Below, one piece after another: positions 2,249 through 13,063 of a DNA stretch of 64,000 nucleotides. Below the pieces are notes generated by a model that saw nothing but the letters and a program-made list of their open reading frames with translations, was not told the origin of the DNA and did not search any database. Source of the DNA: Escherichia coli. Lineage in GTDB: Bacteria > Pseudomonadota > Gammaproteobacteria > Enterobacterales > Enterobacteriaceae. The translations under genes and the position numbers were made by a program. Position 1 is the stretch's first letter. Every line of letters starts with the position of its first letter. Location of the stretch: assembly GCF_036507355.1 (NCBI RefSeq), contig NZ_AP027877.1. One strand, 5' to 3'.

Positions 2249-2833
2249 TTACTCCCTGACAGGGTTCGTAGGCCACTCAATATCAGGTGCAGTTGATGTA
2301 TCAACACGGTTCAGCAACACCCGATACTTTTTCCAGGCTTCCAGCAATGAGGTTTCTTCCTCCGTTGCGATTTCCAGATCCACAGCATCCTGAAGTGGCG
2401 CAATATGCTCACTGGCTACCTGCATCAGGCTGTTTTTTGTTTCTTCCGCCTCTCGGATCCGGAACAGTTTTTCTGCTTCTGCATCTTTCACCCAGGCTGT
2501 GCCGTTCCACTTCTGAAACTCCCCTTCCGGCGATAACCAGGTAACATTTTCCGGTAACGGACCGAGTTCAGAAATAAATAACGCGTCCCCTGACGCTACG
2601 TCATAAACCGTTTTACCCCGATGGTCTTCAACGAGATGCCACGATGCCTCATCACTGTTGAAAACAGCCACGAAGCCTGCCGGAATATCTGGCGGTGCAA
2701 TATCGGTACTGTTTGCTGGCAGACCTGTATGAGGCGGAATATATGCATCACCTTCACCAATAAATTCATTAGTTCCGGCCAGCAGATTATAAATTTTTAT
2801 GGTCCGTGGTTGTTCACTCATTCTGAATGCCAT
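2249..2833 (-). CDS. tfaR: tail fibre assembly protein
   Basis: 194-aa [23 protein letters not shown]... typical lambdoid Tfa, directly downstream of the tail fibre fragment. Confidence 0.85.
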
Positions 2834-3750
2834 TATGCAAGCCTCACAATGTAGTTAAATGCGATGTTTTTGACGGTGTTTTCCGCGTTACCCGCAGCGT
2901 TAACGGTGATGGTGTGTCCATGTGAGCCAATCGAAACAGAGTGCGTATGAGCACCAATTCCGACAGTATGTGCGTGAGCACCTGCAGATGCAGCTGTGCC
3001 GCTGACACTATGAGTGTGCGCTCCTGCAGCACTTGTATTCACACTGGCCGCAGACACAACCTTATGTACTGACCCATTTTGTGACTACTGGCTGACTGCT
3101 GATGCGCCTGTGACACTATGAGTATGGTTTCCGGCACTTGCGGCTGTACCGCTCACACTGTGTGTATGTGCCCCGGTGTTATTCGTAGATTTAGTGCCGT
3201 AATCAAACGACGATGTGGTTTTCGTACCCAAATCCGTACTGGATGCGCTGGCGCTGTGGGTGTGCGATTTAATACCGTCCTGTTCCTGAGACAATACGGC
3301 CCGACCACTGGCAGGTTTGCCCTTAATCGTCCAGCCACGCATATCAGGGATCACGCCTGACGGATAAGCGGCTGCAAGTTTCGGGTAAGCAGATTTGTCA
3401 AAAGTTTGCCCCTGCATCAGGGCATAGCCAGACGGAACGGTATCTGATGGCCACGGGATTGGTGCACCGACTGGATAAAACTCTGCAGGAGGATGAGCTG
3501 AGGTGTAAAGCTGCGCCCACGGCGACCAGTTTGCGTCGGTCGTATCCCGTCGTGAACGAATAAATGCCGGAGCATGAGCACCGCTTGTACCACTCCAGCC
3601 GATGAGTAACTCACCTTCGCCAACGGCTGTCATCCCTTTCAGGTGAATGATATTTCCATACGCTGTTGGATATCCGTTGTTATACACCTCGTATAACTCA
3701 AGACCTGTTGCCCCCTGCGTATTGTCTGTCAGCGCGGTTAGCCGCCATTG
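2833..3750 (-). pseudogene. stfR: side tail fibre C-terminal fragment with in-frame amber stop
   Basis: open frame from the TGA at 3751-3753 through ...[23 protein letters not shown]... with [13 protein letters not shown] repeats; TAG at 3085-3087 splits it; N-terminal bulk of the gene absent. Confidence 0.8.
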
Positions 3751-4217
3751 TCACCAAGAAAATCCCCGCCCTGCGACATAGCGATGGAAAGAGCAGGTAT
3801 TGATTCGTAGTACGCCAGCATTTCAGAAAGGATCGCATCCAGTTTCCTTATCGGAAAATAGGCCTGGTCATAGTTGCGATCCACCCGAAACTGGAACTCG
3901 TGATAATCATCATCGAGCTGAATGAAGTATTTACACCCGACCAGTTTTGCCTGGTCGAAACAGGCATTACGGGCGTAAAAAATTGAGCGGCGGTCACAGA
4001 AATTATCGGCTTCGTCAAAACGACTGGCGATATCGGCTTTGGAAAACACCAGCACCTGTTCACCAAATTCAGCCATGTACTGATGCCGTGTCTTATCTTC
4101 ATCATCAACAACGATAAAAATTTTCCCGGTATAGCCAGCACGACGCAACGTCCGGTAAGTCAGAACTTTGTCCGGTCGCCCGTGAGTCAGAATAAAGGCG
4201 CAAAAATCATCACGCAT
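3738..4217 (-). CDS. GT-A fold glycosyltransferase-like protein, probably C-terminally truncated
   Basis: 159 aa from the ATG overlapping the upstream stop (ATGCGTGA) behind a GGAGGAGGA RBS; motifs FILTHGRPD...IFIVVDDED and [23 protein letters not shown] resemble GT2 signatures including DxD. Confidence 0.5.
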
Positions 4218-5001
4218 ATTCCTCCTCCTCACCACCATGCATGATCTCCACCATGCGCTGCGTCATCCGGACAAATCCATTTTCAATAGCCTGCTGATAA
4301 TCAATGATCACCAGCGCCGACTCCTCGAAAAAACACTGAATTTCAGCGGGGGCGTGAGCGTAATAGTCCGCAATTCTGCTGAAATTAAACACCGTGTGAC
4401 GTTCTGCCGCACACAGGAGGAATTTCTCAATATCAGGCTCAAGGGACGCCGAACGTATCCGGCTGATCAGCTCCTGAGTTTTCGTATCGTCGTACAGTTC
4501 ACTGATATCCGGTTTACCGCCCGACGGCTCATAAACAGGCGTATCAATTTTCGTCGTATACGGCTCCTCCTCATTTCCTGTACCGGGCAAAACATCCGTC
4601 AACAGTTCATCAATTTCTGTCGGGATGAAGCCTGTCAGGGAGACATCAAAATCAGCATTGATTAGGTCCGACAGCTCCATCCGCAACAGATCTTCATCCC
4701 AGCCAGCATTCATCGGCAGGCGATTATCTGCCAGGCGGTACGCCTTTTTCTGCTCATCCGTCAGGCCAGACAGAACAATGACCGGAACAGAATCCATTTT
4801 GAGCATTTCAGCCGCCATAACACGACCGTGACCCGCAATAATTTCGCCCTTTTCGTCAATCAGCACCGGATTAGTCCAGCCGAATTGCTTAATACTTTCT
4901 ACCAGTTGTGCCACCTGCTCAGTACTGTGCGTCCTGGCGTTGTGCGCATACGGTGACAATTCTTGTAATGGGCGATAGACTATCTTTAATTTCTCGCTCA
5001 T
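4210..5001 (-). CDS. ParB/Srx-fold (ParB-like nuclease domain) protein, ynaK-like
   Basis: 263-aa ORF; N-terminal region with GHGR motif (IIAGHGRVMAAEML) typical of the ParB/sulfiredoxin fold; acidic C-terminus. Confidence 0.6.
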   Translation of the reverse strand: MSEKLKIVYRPLQELSPYAHNARTHSTEQVAQLVESIKQFGWTNPVLIDEKGEIIAGHGRVMAAEMLKMDSVPVIVLSGLTDEQKKAYRLADNRLPMNAGWDEDLLRMELSDLINADFDVSLTGFIPTEIDELLTDVLPGTGNEEEPYTTKIDTPVYEPSGGKPDISELYDDTKTQELISRIRSASLEPDIEKFLLCAAERHTVFNFSRIADYYAHAPAEIQCFFEESALVIIDYQQAIENGFVRMTQRMVEIMHGGEEEEYA

Positions 5002-5138
5002 ACAGCCTTGCTTTATGAATAAAACGCACCCCAGCAGCCAGTGCTACTGGGGACGGAGGTGTTGCTGGTAAAGTTAGGTATTGGATCAATGAGTGAGTCA
5101 ACATAATATTAAACTCACAATTATAAATCAGCCATATA

Positions 5139-6614
5139 TTAGGAGCGCCAAAAAAAACCTGAAAACAATATAATAACAGGATAAATTTCAAGGCGACCAA
5201 GAATCATAGCTATGCACATTAAACATTTTGCAATGTCATTAAGCACTCCGAATGACGATGCAGTAGCCCCAAAACCTAATCCCATATTATTAATACATGC
5301 AGCCACTGTTGCAAATGATGTAAGAAAATCATATCCCATACCATTTAACACCAGTATAAAAAACACCGTGAAGAGAGTATAAAGAAAAAAGAAACTCCAT
5401 ACAGACCTCATTACACGATCTGTAACTATCTTCCCTCCTACATTTACACTCAACAACGCTCTGGGATGAGAAAGCTGATTTATCTCGTGTTTGCTTTGTT
5501 TGAAAAGTATAAGAAATCGAAGTGACTTAATTCCACCACAAGTTGAACCTATACATCCCCCAAAGAAACTTGACAACAGCAAAAACACTATCGTGTGCGT
5601 GGGCCAACTTGCATAATCCTGCGTAGCTAAACCATTATCAGTGAGCATGGAGCTGGCAAGAAAAAACGAATGAATAAAACTTCCATGCAAGTCATACATA
5701 CCTATATGCCAGACCTGGAAAGAGGTAACAATGATCACCCCTAAGGCTATTAACAGAAAGAAACGAAGTTCAATATCTCTGATTAAAGGTTTTATCGTTT
5801 TCCTGCTAATAACAATATACCAAAGAGTGAAGTTGAAAGCCGATAGCAGGGAAAAAGAACCAGCCACCAGCTCAACCAAATAGTTATTAAAATATCCGAT
5901 ACTCTCGCTATGAGTTGAGAAACCACCAAGCGAAACTGTGGAAATCCCGTGACAAATAGCATCAAACAAAGGCATTCCTGCAAGTCTATAACAGACAATA
6001 CAAGCAATACCTAATAAAGAATAAGTTATCCACAGTGTCCGTGACGTATCGGCCAGGCGGGGAGTGAGTTTGTCATCCTTAAATGGCCCCGGCATTTCTG
6101 ACTGATAAAGCTTTGCACCACCAATACCCAATAATGGCAATACAGCAACCGCCAGAACAATAACTCCTAAACCACCTATAAAATTTAACTGTGACCGATA
6201 GTACAAATATGCCCGAGGTAATGAACTAACATCATCAATTACAGTTGCTCCTGTTGTTGTTATTCCAGAAACCCCTTCAAACAGAGCATCAATGAACGTT
6301 AAATTAAGTTCTGAGTCAATCCATAAAGGGAATGCACTAATAACAGAAAACAAAATCCAAAACATTACAATTATAATAAACCCATCACGGGTACGTAATT
6401 GAATGCCAGATTTCTTAGTTGTATACCACGCTCCGCCACCAATGCAAAAAAATATAACGAAAGTTATAAAGAAAACGAACAGGCTTTTTTCTTTATAAAA
6501 CAATGCTACAACCATTGGTGGCAACATTGAAAGACTATAGAGCCAAACCAGGAACCCACACATATGAGTAACAACTCTTACATGAGATGTATTCATATCT
6601 AAATATTCTTTCAA
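5139..6614 (-). CDS. trkG: Trk potassium uptake protein TrkG (prophage moron)
   Basis: polytopic membrane protein with TrkH/TrkG-type repeats; AT-rich relative to flanks; likely true start at 6596 (MNTSHVRVV...). Confidence 0.9.
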   Translation of the reverse strand: MKEYLDMNTSHVRVVTHMCGFLVWLYSLSMLPPMVVALFYKEKSLFVFFITFVIFFCIGGGAWYTTKKSGIQLRTRDGFIIIVMFWILFSVISAFPLWIDSELNLTFIDALFEGVSGITTTGATVIDDVSSLPRAYLYYRSQLNFIGGLGVIVLAVAVLPLLGIGGAKLYQSEMPGPFKDDKLTPRLADTSRTLWITYSLLGIACIVCYRLAGMPLFDAICHGISTVSLGGFSTHSESIGYFNNYLVELVAGSFSLLSAFNFTLWYIVISRKTIKPLIRDIELRFFLLIALGVIIVTSFQVWHIGMYDLHGSFIHSFFLASSMLTDNGLATQDYASWPTHTIVFLLLSSFFGGCIGSTCGGIKSLRFLILFKQSKHEINQLSHPRALLSVNVGGKIVTDRVMRSVWSFFFLYTLFTVFFILVLNGMGYDFLTSFATVAACINNMGLGFGATASSFGVLNDIAKCLMCIAMILGRLEIYPVIILFSGFFWRS

Positions 6615-6892: not shown

Positions 6893-7759
6893 CTAAGCGA
6901 GGTTCTGGTTTTCAAATTGTTCCGGACTGAGGCCGCCACACCAACTGTGCCGCCGCCACCGATTGTAATCACATTCGATATAATTAAACACCGTTGCCCG
7001 CATTATTTCCCGGCTGATAAAGTGTTCTCCATGGATACATTCCACTTTCAGCGAATGAAAGAAGCTTTCCACGCAGGCATTATCGTAGCAGCAACCTTTT
7101 GCGCTCATACTTCCACGCAGATTATGCCGCTTCAGTTGCGCCTGATAATCTGCTGAACAGTACTGGCCTCCACGGTCCGTGTGAACGATAACGTTCCGGG
7201 GCCTCTTACGCCGCCACAGCGCCATCTGCAGGGCATCGCAGGCCAGTTGCGCCGTCATGCGTGGCGACATTGACCAGCCAATAACGGCACGTGACCACAG
7301 GTCAATGACCACTGCCAGATACAGCCAGCCTTCATCTGTACGTAAGTACGTGATGTCTCCTGCCCACTTCTGGTTCGGGCCACTGGCGTAAAAATCCTGC
7401 TCCAACAGATTTTCTGACACAGGCAGGCCGTGTGCGCGGTAGCTGACCGGGCTGAACTTCCGGGAGGCCTTTGCCCTCAGTCCCTGACGGCGCAGGCTTG
7501 CCGCCACGGTTTTTACGTTAAAGGGGTAACCCTGAGCACGCAGTTCATCCGTCAGGCGTGGGGCACCGTAACGCTGTTTTGACCGGGTAAAAGCCGCGAG
7601 GACAACGCTGTCGCAGTGTTGGCGGAACTGCTGACGCGTGCTTATCCTTGTCCGCCGCTGACACCACGTATACCAGCCGCTGCGGGCCACCCGGAGCACG
7701 CGGCACATTGCTTTGATGCTGAACTCAGCCTGATGTTTTTCAATAAAGACATACTTCAT
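6893..7759 (-). CDS. insF: IS3 transposase OrfB (DDE integrase domain)
   Basis: 288-aa [35 protein letters not shown]... with DDE-type catalytic region. Confidence 0.9.
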
Positions 7760-8064
7760 TTCAGGCGCTTCGCGAAGTATGTCGCGGCCTTTTGGAGGAT
7801 AGCCAGCTCTTCATCCCGTTCTGCCAGCTGGCGTTTGAGACGTGCAATCTCGGTAGACATCTCCAGTTCACGTTCAGAAGACGTCTGCTGATTTTGCTGT
7901 TTACTGCGCCAGTTGTAGAGCTGTGATTCATACAGGCTGAGTTCACGGGCTGCGGCAGTAACACCGATGCGTTCAGCAAGCTTCAGGGCTTCACTGCGAA
8001 ATTCAGGCGAATGCTGTTTACGGGGTTTTTTACTGGTTGATACTGTTTTTGTCATGTGAGTCAC
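7756..8064 (-). CDS. insE: IS3 transposase OrfA
   Basis: 102-aa HTH protein [34 protein letters not shown]... Confidence 0.9.
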
Positions 8065-8120: not shown

Positions 8121-9500
8121 CCGGACGCAACTGAACATCATCAGGACACGCAGCCGCTGGATGCTCAGTCACAGGTAAATTCTGTTGATGCGAAATATCA
8201 GGAACTGCGGGCAGAACTCCATGAAGCCCGGAAAAACATTCCATCAAAAAATCCTGTCGATGCCGATAAATTGCTTGCTGCATCACGTGGTGAATTTGTT
8301 GACGGAATTAGCGACCCGAACGATCCGAAATGGGTAAAGGGGATCCAGACTCGCGATTGTGTGTACCAGAACCAGCCAGAAACGGAAAAAACCAGCCCAG
8401 ATATGAATCAACCTGAGCCAGTAGTGCAACAGGAACCGGAAATAGCCTGCAATGCCTGCGGCCAGACTGGCGGGGATAACTGCCCTGACTGTGGTGCGGT
8501 GATGGGCGACGCAACATACCAGGAAACATTCGATGAAGAGAGTCAGGTTGAAGCTAAGGAAAATGATCCGGAGGAAATGGAAGGCGCTGAACATCCGCAC
8601 AATGAGAATGCTGGCAGCGATCCGCATCGCGATTGCAGTGATGAAACTGGCGAAGTCGCAGATCCCGTAATCGTAGAAGACATAGAGCCAGGTATTTATT
8701 ACGGAATTTCGAATGAGAATTACCACGCGGGTCCCGGTATCAGTAAGTCTCAGCTCGATGACATTGCTGATACTCCGGCACTATATTTGTGGCGTAAAAA
8801 TGCCCCCGTGGACACCACAAAGACAAAAACGCTCGATTTAGGAACTGCTTTCCACTGCCGGGTACTTGAACCGGAAGAATTCAGTAACCGCTTTATCGTA
8901 GCACCTGAATTTAACCGCCGTACAAACGCCGGAAAAGAAGAAGAGAAAGCGTTTCTGATGGAATGCGCAAGCACAGGAAAAACGGTTATCACTGCGGAAG
9001 AAGGCCGGAAAATTGAACTCATGTATCAAAGCGTTATGGCTTTGCCGCTGGGGCAATGGCTTGTTGAAAGCGCCGGACACGCTGAATCATCAATTTACTG
9101 GGAAGATCCTGAAACAGGAATTTTGTGTCGGTGCCGTCCGGACAAAATTATCCCTGAATTTCACTGGATCATGGACGTGAAAACTACGGCGGATATTCAA
9201 CGATTCAAAACCGCTTATTACGACTACCGCTATCACGTTCAGGATGCATTCTACAGTGACGGTTATGAAGCACAGTTTGGAGTGCAGCCAACTTTCGTTT
9301 TTCTGGTTGCCAGCACAACTATTGAATGCGGACGTTATCCGGTTGAAATTTTCATGATGGGCGAAGAAGCAAAACTGGCAGGTCAACAGGAATATCACCG
9401 CAATCTGCGAACCCTGTCTGACTGCCTGAATACCGATGAATGGCCAGCTATTAAGACATTATCACTGCCCCGCTGGGCTAAGGAATATGCAAATGACTAA
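8121..9500 (+). pseudogene. recE: exonuclease VIII (RecE) C-terminal fragment, N-terminally truncated at the IS3 junction
   Basis: frame open from the IS3 boundary; ends ...[13 protein letters not shown] and overlaps the recT start as in Rac; about 460 of ~866 codons remain. Confidence 0.8.
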
Positions 9501-10431: not shown

Positions 10432-10707
10432 GTGGCTTCTGTTTCTATCAGCTGTCCCTCCTGTTCAGCTACTGACGGGGTGGTGCGTAACGGCAAAAGC
10501 ACCGCCGGACATCAGCGCTATCTCTGCTCTCACTGCCGTAAAACATGGCAACTGCAGTTCACTTACACCGCTTCTCAACCCGGTACGCACCAGAAAATCA
10601 TTGATATGGCCATGAATGGCGTTGGATGCCGGGCAACAGCCCGCATTATGGGCATTGGCCTCAACACGATTTTACGTCACTTAAAAAACTCAGGCCGCAG
10701 TCGGTAA
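10432..10707 (+). CDS. insA: IS1 InsA
   Basis: 91-aa [23 protein letters not shown]... zinc-finger/HTH protein; A6C frameshift motif near 10683. Confidence 0.9.
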
Positions 10708-11129
10708 CCTCGCGCATACAGCCGGGCAGTGACGTCATCGTCTGCGCGGAAATGGACGAACAGTGGGGCTATGTCGGGGCTAAATCGCGCCAGCGCTGGC
10801 TGTTTTACGCGTATGACAGGCTCCGGAAGACGGTTGTTGCGCACGTATTCGGTGAACGCACGATGGCGACGCTGGGGCGTCTTATGAGCCTGCTGTCACC
10901 CTTTGACGTGGTGATATGGATGACGGATGGCTGGCCGCTGTATGAATCCCGCCTGAAGGGAAAGCTGCACGTAATCAGCAAGCGATATACGCAGCGAATT
11001 GAGCGGCATAACCTGAATCTGAGGCAGCACCTGGCACGGCTGGGACGGAAGTCGCTGTCGTTCTCAAAATCGGTGGAGCTGCATGACAAAGTCATCGGGC
11101 ATTATCTGAACATAAAACACTATCAATAA
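10626..11129 (+). CDS. insB: IS1 InsB (expressed as the InsAB' frameshift fusion)
   Basis: 167-aa ORF overlapping insA in the -1 frame. Confidence 0.85.
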
Positions 11130-11322: not shown

Positions 11323-11532
11323 ATGTATAAAATTACCGCCACTATTGAAAAGGAAGGTGGCACTCCTACTAACTGGACAAGATATTCAAAATCTAAACTA
11401 ACGAAATCAGAATGCGAAAAAATGCTCTCAGGTAAAAAAGAAGCAGGCGTTTCCAGAGAGCAGAAAGTAAAACTGATAAATTTTAATTGCGAGAAACTTC
11501 AGTCCTCGAGAATTGCATTGTATTCAAATTAA
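11323..11532 (+). CDS. ydaC: Rac prophage small protein YdaC
   Basis: 69 aa MYKITATIEKEGGTPTNWTRYSKSKL...; conserved position between ralR and xis. Confidence 0.7.
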   Translation: MYKITATIEKEGGTPTNWTRYSKSKLTKSECEKMLSGKKEAGVSREQKVKLINFNCEKLQSSRIALYSN

Positions 11533-11610
11533 AACTTCATAGCTGATTATTAATAATCAACATCGGGCGTCAATTTCAGTCTAACATTGGCGCCTGCCAG
11601 AGGTGATGCG

Positions 11611-11826
11611 ATGGCACAAGTAATCTTTAATGAAGAGTGGATGGTTGAATACGGCCTGATGCTTCGCACTGGTCTGGGGGCCAGACAAATTGAAGCATAC
11701 CGCCAGAACTGTTGGGTGGAGGGCTTCCACTTCAAACGAGTATCTCCTTTAGGTAAGCCAGACAGCAAACGAGGGATTATCTGGTACAACTATCCAAAGA
11801 TAAATCAGTTTATCAAAGACTCATGA
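11611..11826 (+). CDS. xisR: prophage excisionase
   Basis: small protein [33 protein letters not shown]... immediately upstream of the integrase. Confidence 0.7.
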
Positions 11827-11827
11827 T

Positions 11828-13063
11828 ATGTCTAAATTACCAACAGGTGTCGAGATTAGAGGTAGATACATTCGCATCTGGTTCATGTTTCGAGGAAAAC
11901 GATGTCGGGAAACATTAAAAGGCTGGGAGATTACAAACAGTAATATTAAAAAGGCCGGAAATTTAAGAGCGCTGATAGTTCATGAAATAAACTCCGGTGA
12001 ATTTGAGTATTTAAGACGTTTTCCCCAGTCCAGCACTGGGGCAAAAATGGTGACAACGAGAGTCATAAAAACGTTCGGAGAGCTTTGTGATATCTGGACA
12101 AAAATTAAAGAGACAGAGTTAACAACAAACACAATGAAGAAAACGAAATCACAATTAAAAACACTCAGAATAATAATTTGTGAAAGTACCCCGATATCAC
12201 ATATTCGTTATAGCGATATCTTAAACTACCGGAATGAACTGCTGCATGGAGAAACGCTTTACCTGGATAATCCAAGATCCAACAAAAAAGGAAGAACCGT
12301 GCGCACAGTTGATAACTATATCGCCCTGCTCTGTTCGCTGTTGCGTTTTGCGTATCAGTCGGGATTTATATCAACCAAACCATTTGAAGGAGTAAAAAAA
12401 TTACAGCGAAACAGAATAAAGCCTGATCCGTTATCTAAAACAGAATTCAATGCATTAATGGAAAGTGAAAAAGGACAGAGCCAGAACTTGTGGAAATTTG
12501 CCGTTTACTCAGGACTTCGTCACGGGGAACTGGCAGCTCTGGCGTGGGAGGATGTGGATCTCGAAAAGGGAATAGTGAATGTCAGAAGAAACCTGACGAT
12601 ACTTGATATGTTCGGTCCCCCAAAAACAAATGCCGGGATCCGAACAGTAACACTACTGCAGCCTGCTCTTGAAGCACTGAAGGAGCAATACAAACTGACC
12701 GGGCATCATCGCAAAAGCGAAATCACCTTTTATCATCGGGAGTACGGCAGAACCGAAAAGCAAAAACTGCATTTTGTTTTCATGCCCAGGGTGTGTAACG
12801 GAAAACAAAAACCTTATTACTCGGTAAGCAGTTTGGGGGCAAGGTGGAATGCAGCAGTAAAACGTGCTGGTATTCGCCGCCGTAATCCGTACCATACGCG
12901 GCATACTTTTGCCTGCTGGCTGTTGACGGCAGGAGCGAACCCGGCATTTATAGCCAGCCAAATGGGGCATGAAACTGCGCAGATGGTGTATGAAATTTAC
13001 GGTATGTGGATTGATGACATGAACGACGAACAGATAGCCATGTTGAATGCGCGGTTATCGTAG
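11828..13063 (+). CDS. intR: tyrosine-type prophage integrase
   Basis: 411 aa, lambda Int-like, C-terminal RHTFA...Y catalytic region; next to the att core. Confidence 0.9.
   Translation: MSKLPTGVEIRGRYIRIWFMFRGKRCRETLKGWEITNSNIKKAGNLRALIVHEINSGEFEYLRRFPQSSTGAKMVTTRVIKTFGELCDIWTKIKETELTTNTMKKTKSQLKTLRIIICESTPISHIRYSDILNYRNELLHGETLYLDNPRSNKKGRTVRTVDNYIALLCSLLRFAYQSGFISTKPFEGVKKLQRNRIKPDPLSKTEFNALMESEKGQSQNLWKFAVYSGLRHGELAALAWEDVDLEKGIVNVRRNLTILDMFGPPKTNAGIRTVTLLQPALEALKEQYKLTGHHRKSEITFYHREYGRTEKQKLHFVFMPRVCNGKQKPYYSVSSLGARWNAAVKRAGIRRRNPYHTRHTFACWLLTAGANPAFIASQMGHETAQMVYEIYGMWIDDMNDEQIAMLNARLS

Follow-up and report, generated by a model that had tools for sequence, protein, structure and literature searches.

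A ParB/Srx and glycosyltransferase gene pair truncated in a Rac-type prophage remnant of Escherichia coli, and its intact counterpart beside phage terminase genes

The window analysed here is a stretch of 64,000 nucleotides (nt) from Escherichia coli (contig NZ_AP027877.1), the first 13 kb of which are the right arm of a Rac-type prophage remnant, occupying the same chromosomal site as in E. coli K-12. Our subject is a pair of overlapping minus-strand genes in this remnant. The upstream gene, ynaK (4210-5001, stop included; gene 1 below), encodes a full-length 263-amino-acid (aa) protein of the ParB/Srx family, and the downstream gene (3738-4217; gene 2) is a remnant, codons 1-159 of 310, of a gene for a GT-A glycosyltransferase of the TAGT (TET-Associated Glycosyltransferase) family. 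Both belong to known families and already carry RefSeq names, and the window itself holds nothing new. What is new lies in the intact cassette, in which a ParB protein is coupled directly to a glycosyltransferase, no dioxygenase is present, and the position at the front of the packaging operon is fixed.

Gene 1 is an open reading frame (ORF) of 263 aa in which the motif IIAGHGRVMAA occupies residues 54-64. Its TGA (4210-4212) overlaps the ATG of gene 2 (4217-4215); the mRNA reads GGTGAGGAGGAGGAATATGCGTGATGA, the 8-nt overlap is ATGCGTGA (4210-4217), and a Shine-Dalgarno sequence, GGAGGAGGA, stands ahead of the gene 2 ATG at 4221-4229. The minus-strand segment 4210-4229, with its Shine-Dalgarno sequence and stop/start overlap, reads as a translational-coupling junction. 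From the ATG at 4217, gene 2 runs for 159 codons to a stop at 3738-3740, and it carries the motifs quoted in a preliminary description of this DNA, including ARN...YFIQLDDD. That description had given a 263-aa ORF with its IIAGHGRVMAA motif, an 8-nt overlap, a ribosome-binding site and a 159-aa second ORF, and every detail proved correct when the sequence was re-read; the overlap that it reported between the end of gene 2 and the tail-fibre frame, which starts at 3750, amounts to about 12 nt. A longer, 166-aa version of gene 2 from an upstream ATG (4238) was rejected, since that ATG has no Shine-Dalgarno sequence and the homologues begin MRDDF.

Gene 2 matches the Pfam TAGT model (PF20691) with E = 9.8e-24 over model positions 4-140 of 205, and PHROG 842 with E = 3e-55 over positions 1-140 of 270. 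The TAGT family was reportedly defined by Iyer et al. in 2013 (Nucleic Acids Research). An intact E. coli homologue of 310 aa, named 'GREB1-related protein' in RefSeq, matches Pfam TAGT with E = 1.7e-34, and gene 2 is collinear with residues 1-159 of this protein, with two substitutions. Structure prediction points to a GT-A fold bearing the DDD metal/nucleotide-sugar motif; the top 50 structure matches in AFDB50 are all TAGT-family proteins, 47 of them named as TET-Associated Glycosyltransferase domain proteins. The preliminary description had seen hallmarks of glycosyltransferase family 2 (GT2). A GT-A glycosyltransferase with R...DDD motifs is indeed what is found, but GT2 membership (Pfam or CAZy) was rejected, as Pfam gives TAGT and Glycos_transf_2 has no match. 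Also rejected as a statement of function was the label of PHROG 842, 'beta-glucosyl-HMC-alpha-glucosyltransferase', an annotation transfer that serves as a name only.

Across 54 aligned relatives R14, D102-D104, K167, D189 and H261 are invariant, and E188 and H260 are nearly so. The window copy retains R14 and D102-D104; K167, E188-D189 and H260-H261, all present in the intact 310-aa homologue, are missing. Residues 160-280 of the intact protein carry a charge of about +10, giving it a basic C-terminal half. Because residues 160-310 have been lost, and with them the invariant K167, D189 and H261, the window copy cannot be active. Judged from its sequence the transferase here is dead, only YnaK is intact, and the module in this genome is non-functional.

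The truncation of gene 2 at a deletion junction, as the preliminary description had supposed, is supported by the partial profile cover, by the collinearity with only part of the 310-aa protein, and by a breakpoint in BLASTN alignments. Homology to intact phages starts at 3741 and tail-fibre homology stops at 3744. The junction (3741-3744) is a 4-bp microhomology, GCCG, that joins the TAGT gene to a tail-fibre gene, and the remnant's stop codon comes from tail-fibre DNA. The tail-fibre gene remnant abutting the junction (3085-3750, minus strand) is an open frame read from 3750 to 3085 without a proper start codon, and it is 97-99.6% identical to genes annotated as 'phage tail protein' or 'prophage tail fiber' in other E. 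coli. The junction is spanned in one piece by none of 5,426 complete E. coli genomes. Many other E. coli entries join an N-terminal part of TAGT to one or another fragment of a tail gene (tail tip, tail tube, tail fibre, fibre assembly), so deletion into the tail region has struck the TAGT gene repeatedly and independently. The K-12 gene ydaY was tried as a glycosyltransferase remnant and rejected, since it corresponds to a tail-region gene.

Gene 1 is named ynaK in RefSeq, with the product 'ParB/Srx family N-terminal domain-containing protein'. It matches PHROG 620 ('ParB-like') with E = 1.3e-90 over residues 1-250 and Pfam ParB_N (PF02195) with E = 1.9e-6 over residues 23-90. The window copy differs from that of an inducible intact phage at 2 of 263 residues; the K-12 ynaK is cut to about its first 87 codons (254 nt). 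At E <= 1e-30 the family counts 2,205 cluster representatives at 50% identity. It is strongly acidic throughout, with a median isoelectric point of 4.6 and a net charge of about -21 (about -25 for YnaK itself).

An AlphaFold2 model of YnaK, built from an alignment of 91 family members and with a mean predicted local distance difference test (pLDDT) score of 87.7, divides the protein into three parts, all encoded on the minus strand. Residues 1-135 (4597-5001) are predicted to take up the ParB/Srx three-dimensional fold, a nucleotide-binding-type domain that holds N21 and, at residues 57-60, the box II motif GHGR. Residues 136-172 (4486-4596) form an acidic, mostly disordered linker, the pLDDT being 46-72 over residues 131-160. 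Residues 173-256 (4234-4485) form a five-helix C-terminal domain that occurs in TAGT-linked proteins only and gave no structural match. A helix-turn-helix (HTH) DNA-binding domain is absent from YnaK. When aligned to Spo0J, YnaK has GHGR in box II where Spo0J has GERR, so that only the second Arg is retained, with Gly at the site of the first and His at that of Glu; N21 stands where ParB has its catalytic Gln. Conserved positions among the 91 sequences include N21, G57, H58, R60, D92 and N93 together with much of the C-domain, and within the linker Y157 is invariant while Y148, P155 and P164 are at least 90% conserved. The first 140 residues match fusions of a ParB domain with a DNA methyltransferase (PHROG 498, E = 9e-51; PADLOC model MTase_II, E = 1.7e-38), and the ParB domain is a module shared with these fusions.

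The linker also shows a family-invariant motif, Y-x-x-K-I-x-x-P-x-Y-E-P-x-G-x-x-P, within residues 136-172, that is kept from E. coli to haloarchaeal viruses, including a Vibrio protein that has the C-terminal domain without the ParB domain. The motif may serve for docking, or as a site of glycosylation.

The intact module was found in strain ES2 and in the induced phage vB_EcoS-683R6, where holin, lysozyme and spanin genes are followed by trkG, the ParB gene (263 aa) and the TAGT gene (310 aa). Next come a gene for a 69-aa protein, which resembles part of a small terminase subunit, and the genes for small terminase, large terminase and portal. The pair is thus directly upstream of the terminase genes in intact phages, and the preliminary description was right to place it where packaging genes are expected. 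Among the 5,426 complete E. coli genomes, 889 (about 16%) hold at least 80% of the pair and 1,579 hold some part of it. Lactobacillus phages c5 and phi jlb1, Nocardia phage NTR1, Salmonella prophages and the haloarchaeal virus HHTV-2 have this pair too, as does a Porphyromonas phage, whose TAGT protein is only 27% identical. In c5 the two genes are ORF1 and ORF2, directly after cos, and in NTR1 they directly precede the gene for the large terminase subunit (TerL), without an annotated small subunit.

Further loci were retrieved from IMG/VR by TAGT similarity. In all 80 a YnaK-type gene lies directly upstream of TAGT. Its stop overlaps the TAGT start by 8 nt at 48 loci and by 11 nt at 23, and an overlap of 4-14 nt is seen at 75. 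In the reciprocal direction, four diverse representatives of the YnaK family (40-42% identity) all have TAGT directly downstream. A search for intact homologous pairs, which the preliminary description had proposed, therefore found them always adjacent, across phyla as well as among the 80 loci. TerL follows TAGT at a distance of 325-2033 nt in 74 of the 74 loci with enough sequence, with at least four PHROG families of terminase represented. The cassette does not adjoin the terminase in HHTV-2, in one further locus (L009) and in Vibrio phages.

The linker and C-domain of YnaK are present in 28 of 50,697 phage records, and all 28 carry TAGT. The gene that precedes TAGT in Vibrio jumbo phages codes for linker and C-domain only, 52% identical to YnaK residues 136-244, with no ParB domain. 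This TAGT-only occurrence, together with the shortened Vibrio genes, indicates that the linker and C-domain are the part of YnaK tied to the transferase. In the Vibrio phage pv27 and five relatives (roughly 190 kb) the shortened gene encodes 139 aa (7459-7878 of its locus), and a helicase gene, not a terminase gene, comes after the cassette. A protein encoded at another locus (L102, 189-1739) begins with a class-I S-adenosylmethionine methyltransferase-like domain and continues as a complete YnaK-type protein; TAGT and terminase genes follow.

Known phage sugar hypermodification starts from 5-hydroxymethylcytosine (5hmC) or 5-hydroxymethyluracil (5hmU), made by a TET/JBP-type dioxygenase (5mYOX) or by a thymidylate-synthase-type enzyme (Pyle 2024), and phage GT-A/TAGT enzymes that bear R..DDD..EDY/F motifs add sugar to 5hmC in DNA (bioRxiv 10.1101/2023.12.21.572611). 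The DNA glycosyltransferases linked to phage 5mYOX or thymidylate synthase (Burke 2021; Pyle 2024) and the trypanosome base-J glucosyltransferase JGT share PF20691, the GT-A fold and the R...DDD...ED motifs with the enzyme studied here. They use 5hmC or 5hmU from a nearby-encoded enzyme, whereas the cassette has no such enzyme and is invariably paired with a ParB-like gene at the front of the packaging operon. ParB-like and terminase genes were noted among glycosyltransferase neighbours by Pyle et al. (2024), who set aside the roughly 65% of glycosyltransferase contigs without 5mYOX or thymidylate synthase as not obviously DNA modification. The beta-glucosyl-HMC-alpha-glucosyltransferase of T2/T6 is another relative, in that TAGT covers the T6-type second glucosyltransferase and both enzymes fall in PHROG 842. 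The T-even enzyme, however, puts a second glucose on glucosyl-hydroxymethylcytosine, and Rac-type phages are without a hydroxymethylcytosine pathway; T-even phages are absent from tblastn matches at E <= 1e-5.

For the ParB partner, a close precedent is a class of phage thymine dioxygenases (5mYOX176/ParB176) that needs its cognate ParB, and only on double-stranded DNA (O'Toole et al., PNAS 2026, PMC13229309). The 5mYOX-associated ParB combines a nucleotide-binding domain with a C-domain and lacks a DNA-binding domain, and predicted structures place the enzyme at the position of the missing DNA-binding domain (PMC13229309); according to the bioRxiv version of the same paper, these ParBs have Gln changed to Asn and Glu changed to Asp or His. 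The likeness to YnaK is that a ParB without a DNA-binding domain stands beside a post-replicative DNA-modifying enzyme, often near terminase genes in both systems, and that YnaK has the N-for-Gln and His-for-Glu changes, ParB176 being compared here by its description only. The systems differ in that YnaK's partner is a glycosyltransferase, no dioxygenase is present, and the YnaK C-domain is specific to TAGT neighbours. In the prophage-enriched fusions of a ParB domain with N6/N4 DNA methyltransferases, the part resembling the N-terminal 140 residues of YnaK is joined covalently to the enzyme; the cassette, which is also found in prophages, has a separate but coupled sugar transferase, with a dedicated linker and C-domain in place of the fusion. 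A passage in Burke et al. 2021 credits Aravind and co-workers with the idea that ParB directs modification enzymes during packaging.

The reading that we prefer, and rate somewhat better than an even bet, is that the intact pair is a late-expressed, ParB-assisted DNA glycosylation module, a TET-less variant of the ParB/5mYOX/glycosyltransferase systems. Both proteins would be made together late in infection through translational coupling, and the linker and C-domain of YnaK would hold the transferase. By analogy with the ParBs of phage thymine dioxygenases, the ParB domain may act as an activator or clamp that enables the transferase to work on double-stranded phage DNA. The transferase would then add a sugar from a nucleotide-sugar to replicated phage DNA just before terminase packages it, and the modification would shield the DNA in the next host. 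What the sequences show is the family memberships, the folds, the truncation, the synteny and the coupling, together with a missing TET/JBP or hydroxymethylase partner in the proteins scanned; the YnaK-TAGT contact, DNA as the acceptor, the timing and the benefit to the phage are inferred. We propose YnaK as a co-translated activator because its architecture and motif changes match those of the 5mYOX-associated ParBs, because of the subtype of its N-domain, and because an acidic YnaK faces a basic TAGT half. A bolder form of the proposal, which we regard as possible but doubtful, is a TET-independent system in which a ParB-fold clamp loads the GT-A transferase and sugar is placed on phage DNA without prior hydroxymethylation, coupled to packaging; a canonical base, a DNA end or the DNA backbone might then serve as the acceptor.

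The preliminary description had expected a role in DNA or nucleotide modification, and named findings that would speak against this. Gene 2 did not turn out to be a non-glycosyltransferase, gene 1 does not fall in a terminase or partition family devoid of links to modification, and the homologues are adjacent; the link to DNA-modifying enzymes is that the subtype of the YnaK N-domain is otherwise found fused to DNA methyltransferases. The expectation holds in so far as the TAGT family contains proven DNA glycosyltransferases, and falters in that the usual source of a hydroxymethyl acceptor is absent. DNA modification is the best-supported explanation of the pair, not a demonstrated function.

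Several observations weigh against it. The complete phages c5 and phi jlb1 have no non-structural protein with a Pfam match to Tet_JBP, 2-oxoglutarate oxygenases or thymidylate synthase. The E. coli Rac-type phage likewise showed no TET/JBP enzyme or hydroxymethylase, all of its early proteins of at least 150 aa being assigned to other families, and no such enzyme was found in the Pfam-annotated flanks of six loci (L007, L009, L010, L011, L097, L102). For these three phages the exclusion comes from batch Pfam scans; it is complete for c5 and phi jlb1, and in the E. coli phage it depends on the early proteins from 150 aa upwards. A conserved third enzyme was also sought upstream of the cassette in the 80 loci, and none of the ten most widely shared protein clusters is an oxygenase or hydroxymethylase. 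Five are NinB, the Q antiterminator, endolysin, a DnaC-like loader and a partial match to a transcriptional regulator; of the rest, three match PHROGs whose function is unknown and two match no PHROG. The commonest upstream genes are ordinary lambdoid functions. With no acceptor-making enzyme, DNA glycosylation would need an acceptor that is unprecedented or supplied by the host. The literature searched reports no modified DNA for any phage carrying the cassette, and searches for ynaK, for HHTV-2 with ParB, and for ParB-like with glycosyltransferase and terminase returned no study of the cassette. The 80 loci are moreover mostly close relatives, and the independence of the pairing rests on the cross-phylum examples.

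The lack of a hydroxymethyl-pyrimidine pathway is equally an argument for the most serious rival, which we consider unlikely: that the transferase glycosylates a protein, whether terminase, portal, capsid or the invariant Tyr/Thr linker motif of YnaK itself, with YnaK as adaptor or substrate. GREB1, an animal TAGT-family member with a homologous glycosyltransferase domain, O-GlcNAcylates a protein (PMC7968844), which also counts against DNA as the acceptor; it differs in being cytoplasmic, 1949 aa long and directed at a transcription factor, and it has neither a ParB partner nor a phage context. Among the informative viral loci the cassette always abuts head and packaging genes, and the invariant Y157 and near-invariant Y148, lying in a linker predicted to be disordered, would be accessible acceptors. 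Yet in HHTV-2, L009 and the Vibrio phages the cassette is away from the terminase, the partner ParB is of the subtype otherwise fused to DNA methyltransferases, every phage TAGT/GT-A enzyme tested so far acts on DNA, and a nucleic-acid acceptor would go well with the basic C-terminal half of TAGT. The nearness of TerL, 0.3-2 kb downstream at all 74 informative loci and across at least four terminase families, could also mean that the pair is an accessory of the packaging machine, a ParB-like protein ('ParB-like nuclease') marking or cutting pac or cos and the transferase being secondary. The placement of the c5 pair right after cos and of the NTR1 pair directly before TerL would suit such a role, but we judge it quite improbable. 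YnaK lacks a DNA-binding domain and is strongly negative (net charge about -25); the sharing of the cassette by unrelated terminases, in both cos and pac phages, argues against recognition of a specific site; and the Vibrio phages keep only the linker and C-domain, beside a helicase. Late-expressed phage DNA methyltransferases, too, are kept upstream of terminase.

Orphan ParB folds bind ATP, GTP or CTP (bioRxiv 10.1101/2025.10.10.680097), and this would allow a kinase-like or NTP-binding ParB/Srx domain in a defence or counter-defence enzyme that acts on a small molecule such as a nucleotide or signal. We hold this to be very improbable, since PADLOC assigned no defence system, gave no match to the TAGT gene and matched YnaK only to the ParB part of its methyltransferase model, and since the gene context shows nothing of a small-molecule pathway. 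That YnaK might be a plasmid- or chromosome-partition ParB, with TAGT adjacent by accident, is suggested by phage records annotated 'chromosome (plasmid) partitioning protein ParB' and by a weak match to TIGR00180. The match scores 38 bits, however, below the 58.45-bit cut-off, and no parA lies beside ynaK, whose neighbours are trkG plus TAGT or terminase in every context examined. Canonical ParABS ParB, Noc and KorB differ from YnaK in their HTH domain, in ParA and a ParA-binding context, and in having GERR in place of GHGR; YnaK is also acidic and a late-operon gene, without parS-type DNA-binding capacity. The element integrates by an integrase, and the adjacency to TAGT is invariant across phyla. 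Having failed these tests of membership, the partition explanation is effectively refuted.

The surroundings of the pair in the window record the decay of the prophage. The flank holds ompN (74-1207) and uspF, and inside it the minus strand carries tfaR (2249-2833) and, at 2833-3750, the tail-fibre fragments. Two ORFs (3085-3687 and 2833-3057), each with repeated motifs, make up what is left of the tail-fibre gene, which is thus interrupted as well as truncated. Upstream of ynaK lies trkG (5139-6614, minus strand), and between the two genes there is a strong hairpin resembling an intrinsic terminator (5029-5052, minus strand) with a 10-bp stem, 7 G-C pairs and a T-run. The GC content of trkG is 35-40%, against 47-50% in the genes next to it, the pair included. 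This AT-richness and the terminator-like hairpin fit what would be expected of a moron inserted in a late operon. Farther on are IS3 (6893-8064), a recE fragment (8271-9500) followed by recT, IS1 (10432-11129) between recT and intR, and intR itself (11828-13063). Erosion has been heavy: IS3 stands in for all DNA between trkG and the recE fragment, and through this replacement the immunity, replication and lysis genes are gone.

Some other cassette-bearing phages have neighbouring features of their own. A 42-kb metagenomic phage (L007, 17837-20316) has a run of four GT2-type glycosyltransferase genes immediately behind the capsid gene, which may be a virion glycosylation module. Two Salmonella prophages (L010, 3431-5102; L011, 2170-3841) encode an AcrVA2-like protein beside a lone Cas1 gene, and in one of the two the ParB gene is immediately preceded by an Acb2/Tad1-like gene. 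In phi jlb1 the 1.4 kb directly upstream of the ParB gene (11350-12746 of its locus) contain no annotated gene and only short ORFs; this stretch may hold an RNA gene or a packaging site.

Taken alone, the window copy is only a record of prophage decay, and the wider interest is in the intact cassette. Sugar modification of phage DNA shapes the arms race with restriction and other defences. The characterised routes all start from a hydroxymethyl or hydroxy pyrimidine; the cassette offers a transferase and a ParB-type helper without the starter enzyme, yet its gene order, its translational coupling and its place ahead of terminase are all extremely conserved. Since the intact pair is present in E. 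coli and in inducible Rac-type phages, the target of TAGT and the role of the ParB are directly testable in a standard laboratory host. If the TET-independent form of the proposal were true, it would mean a chemically new DNA modification in phages of Pseudomonadota, Bacillota, Actinomycetota and Bacteroidota and in a haloarchaeal virus, encoded in about 16% of complete E. coli genomes. A ParB-assisted glycosylation module would extend the role of ParB folds as activators of DNA-modifying enzymes from dioxygenases to glycosyltransferases.

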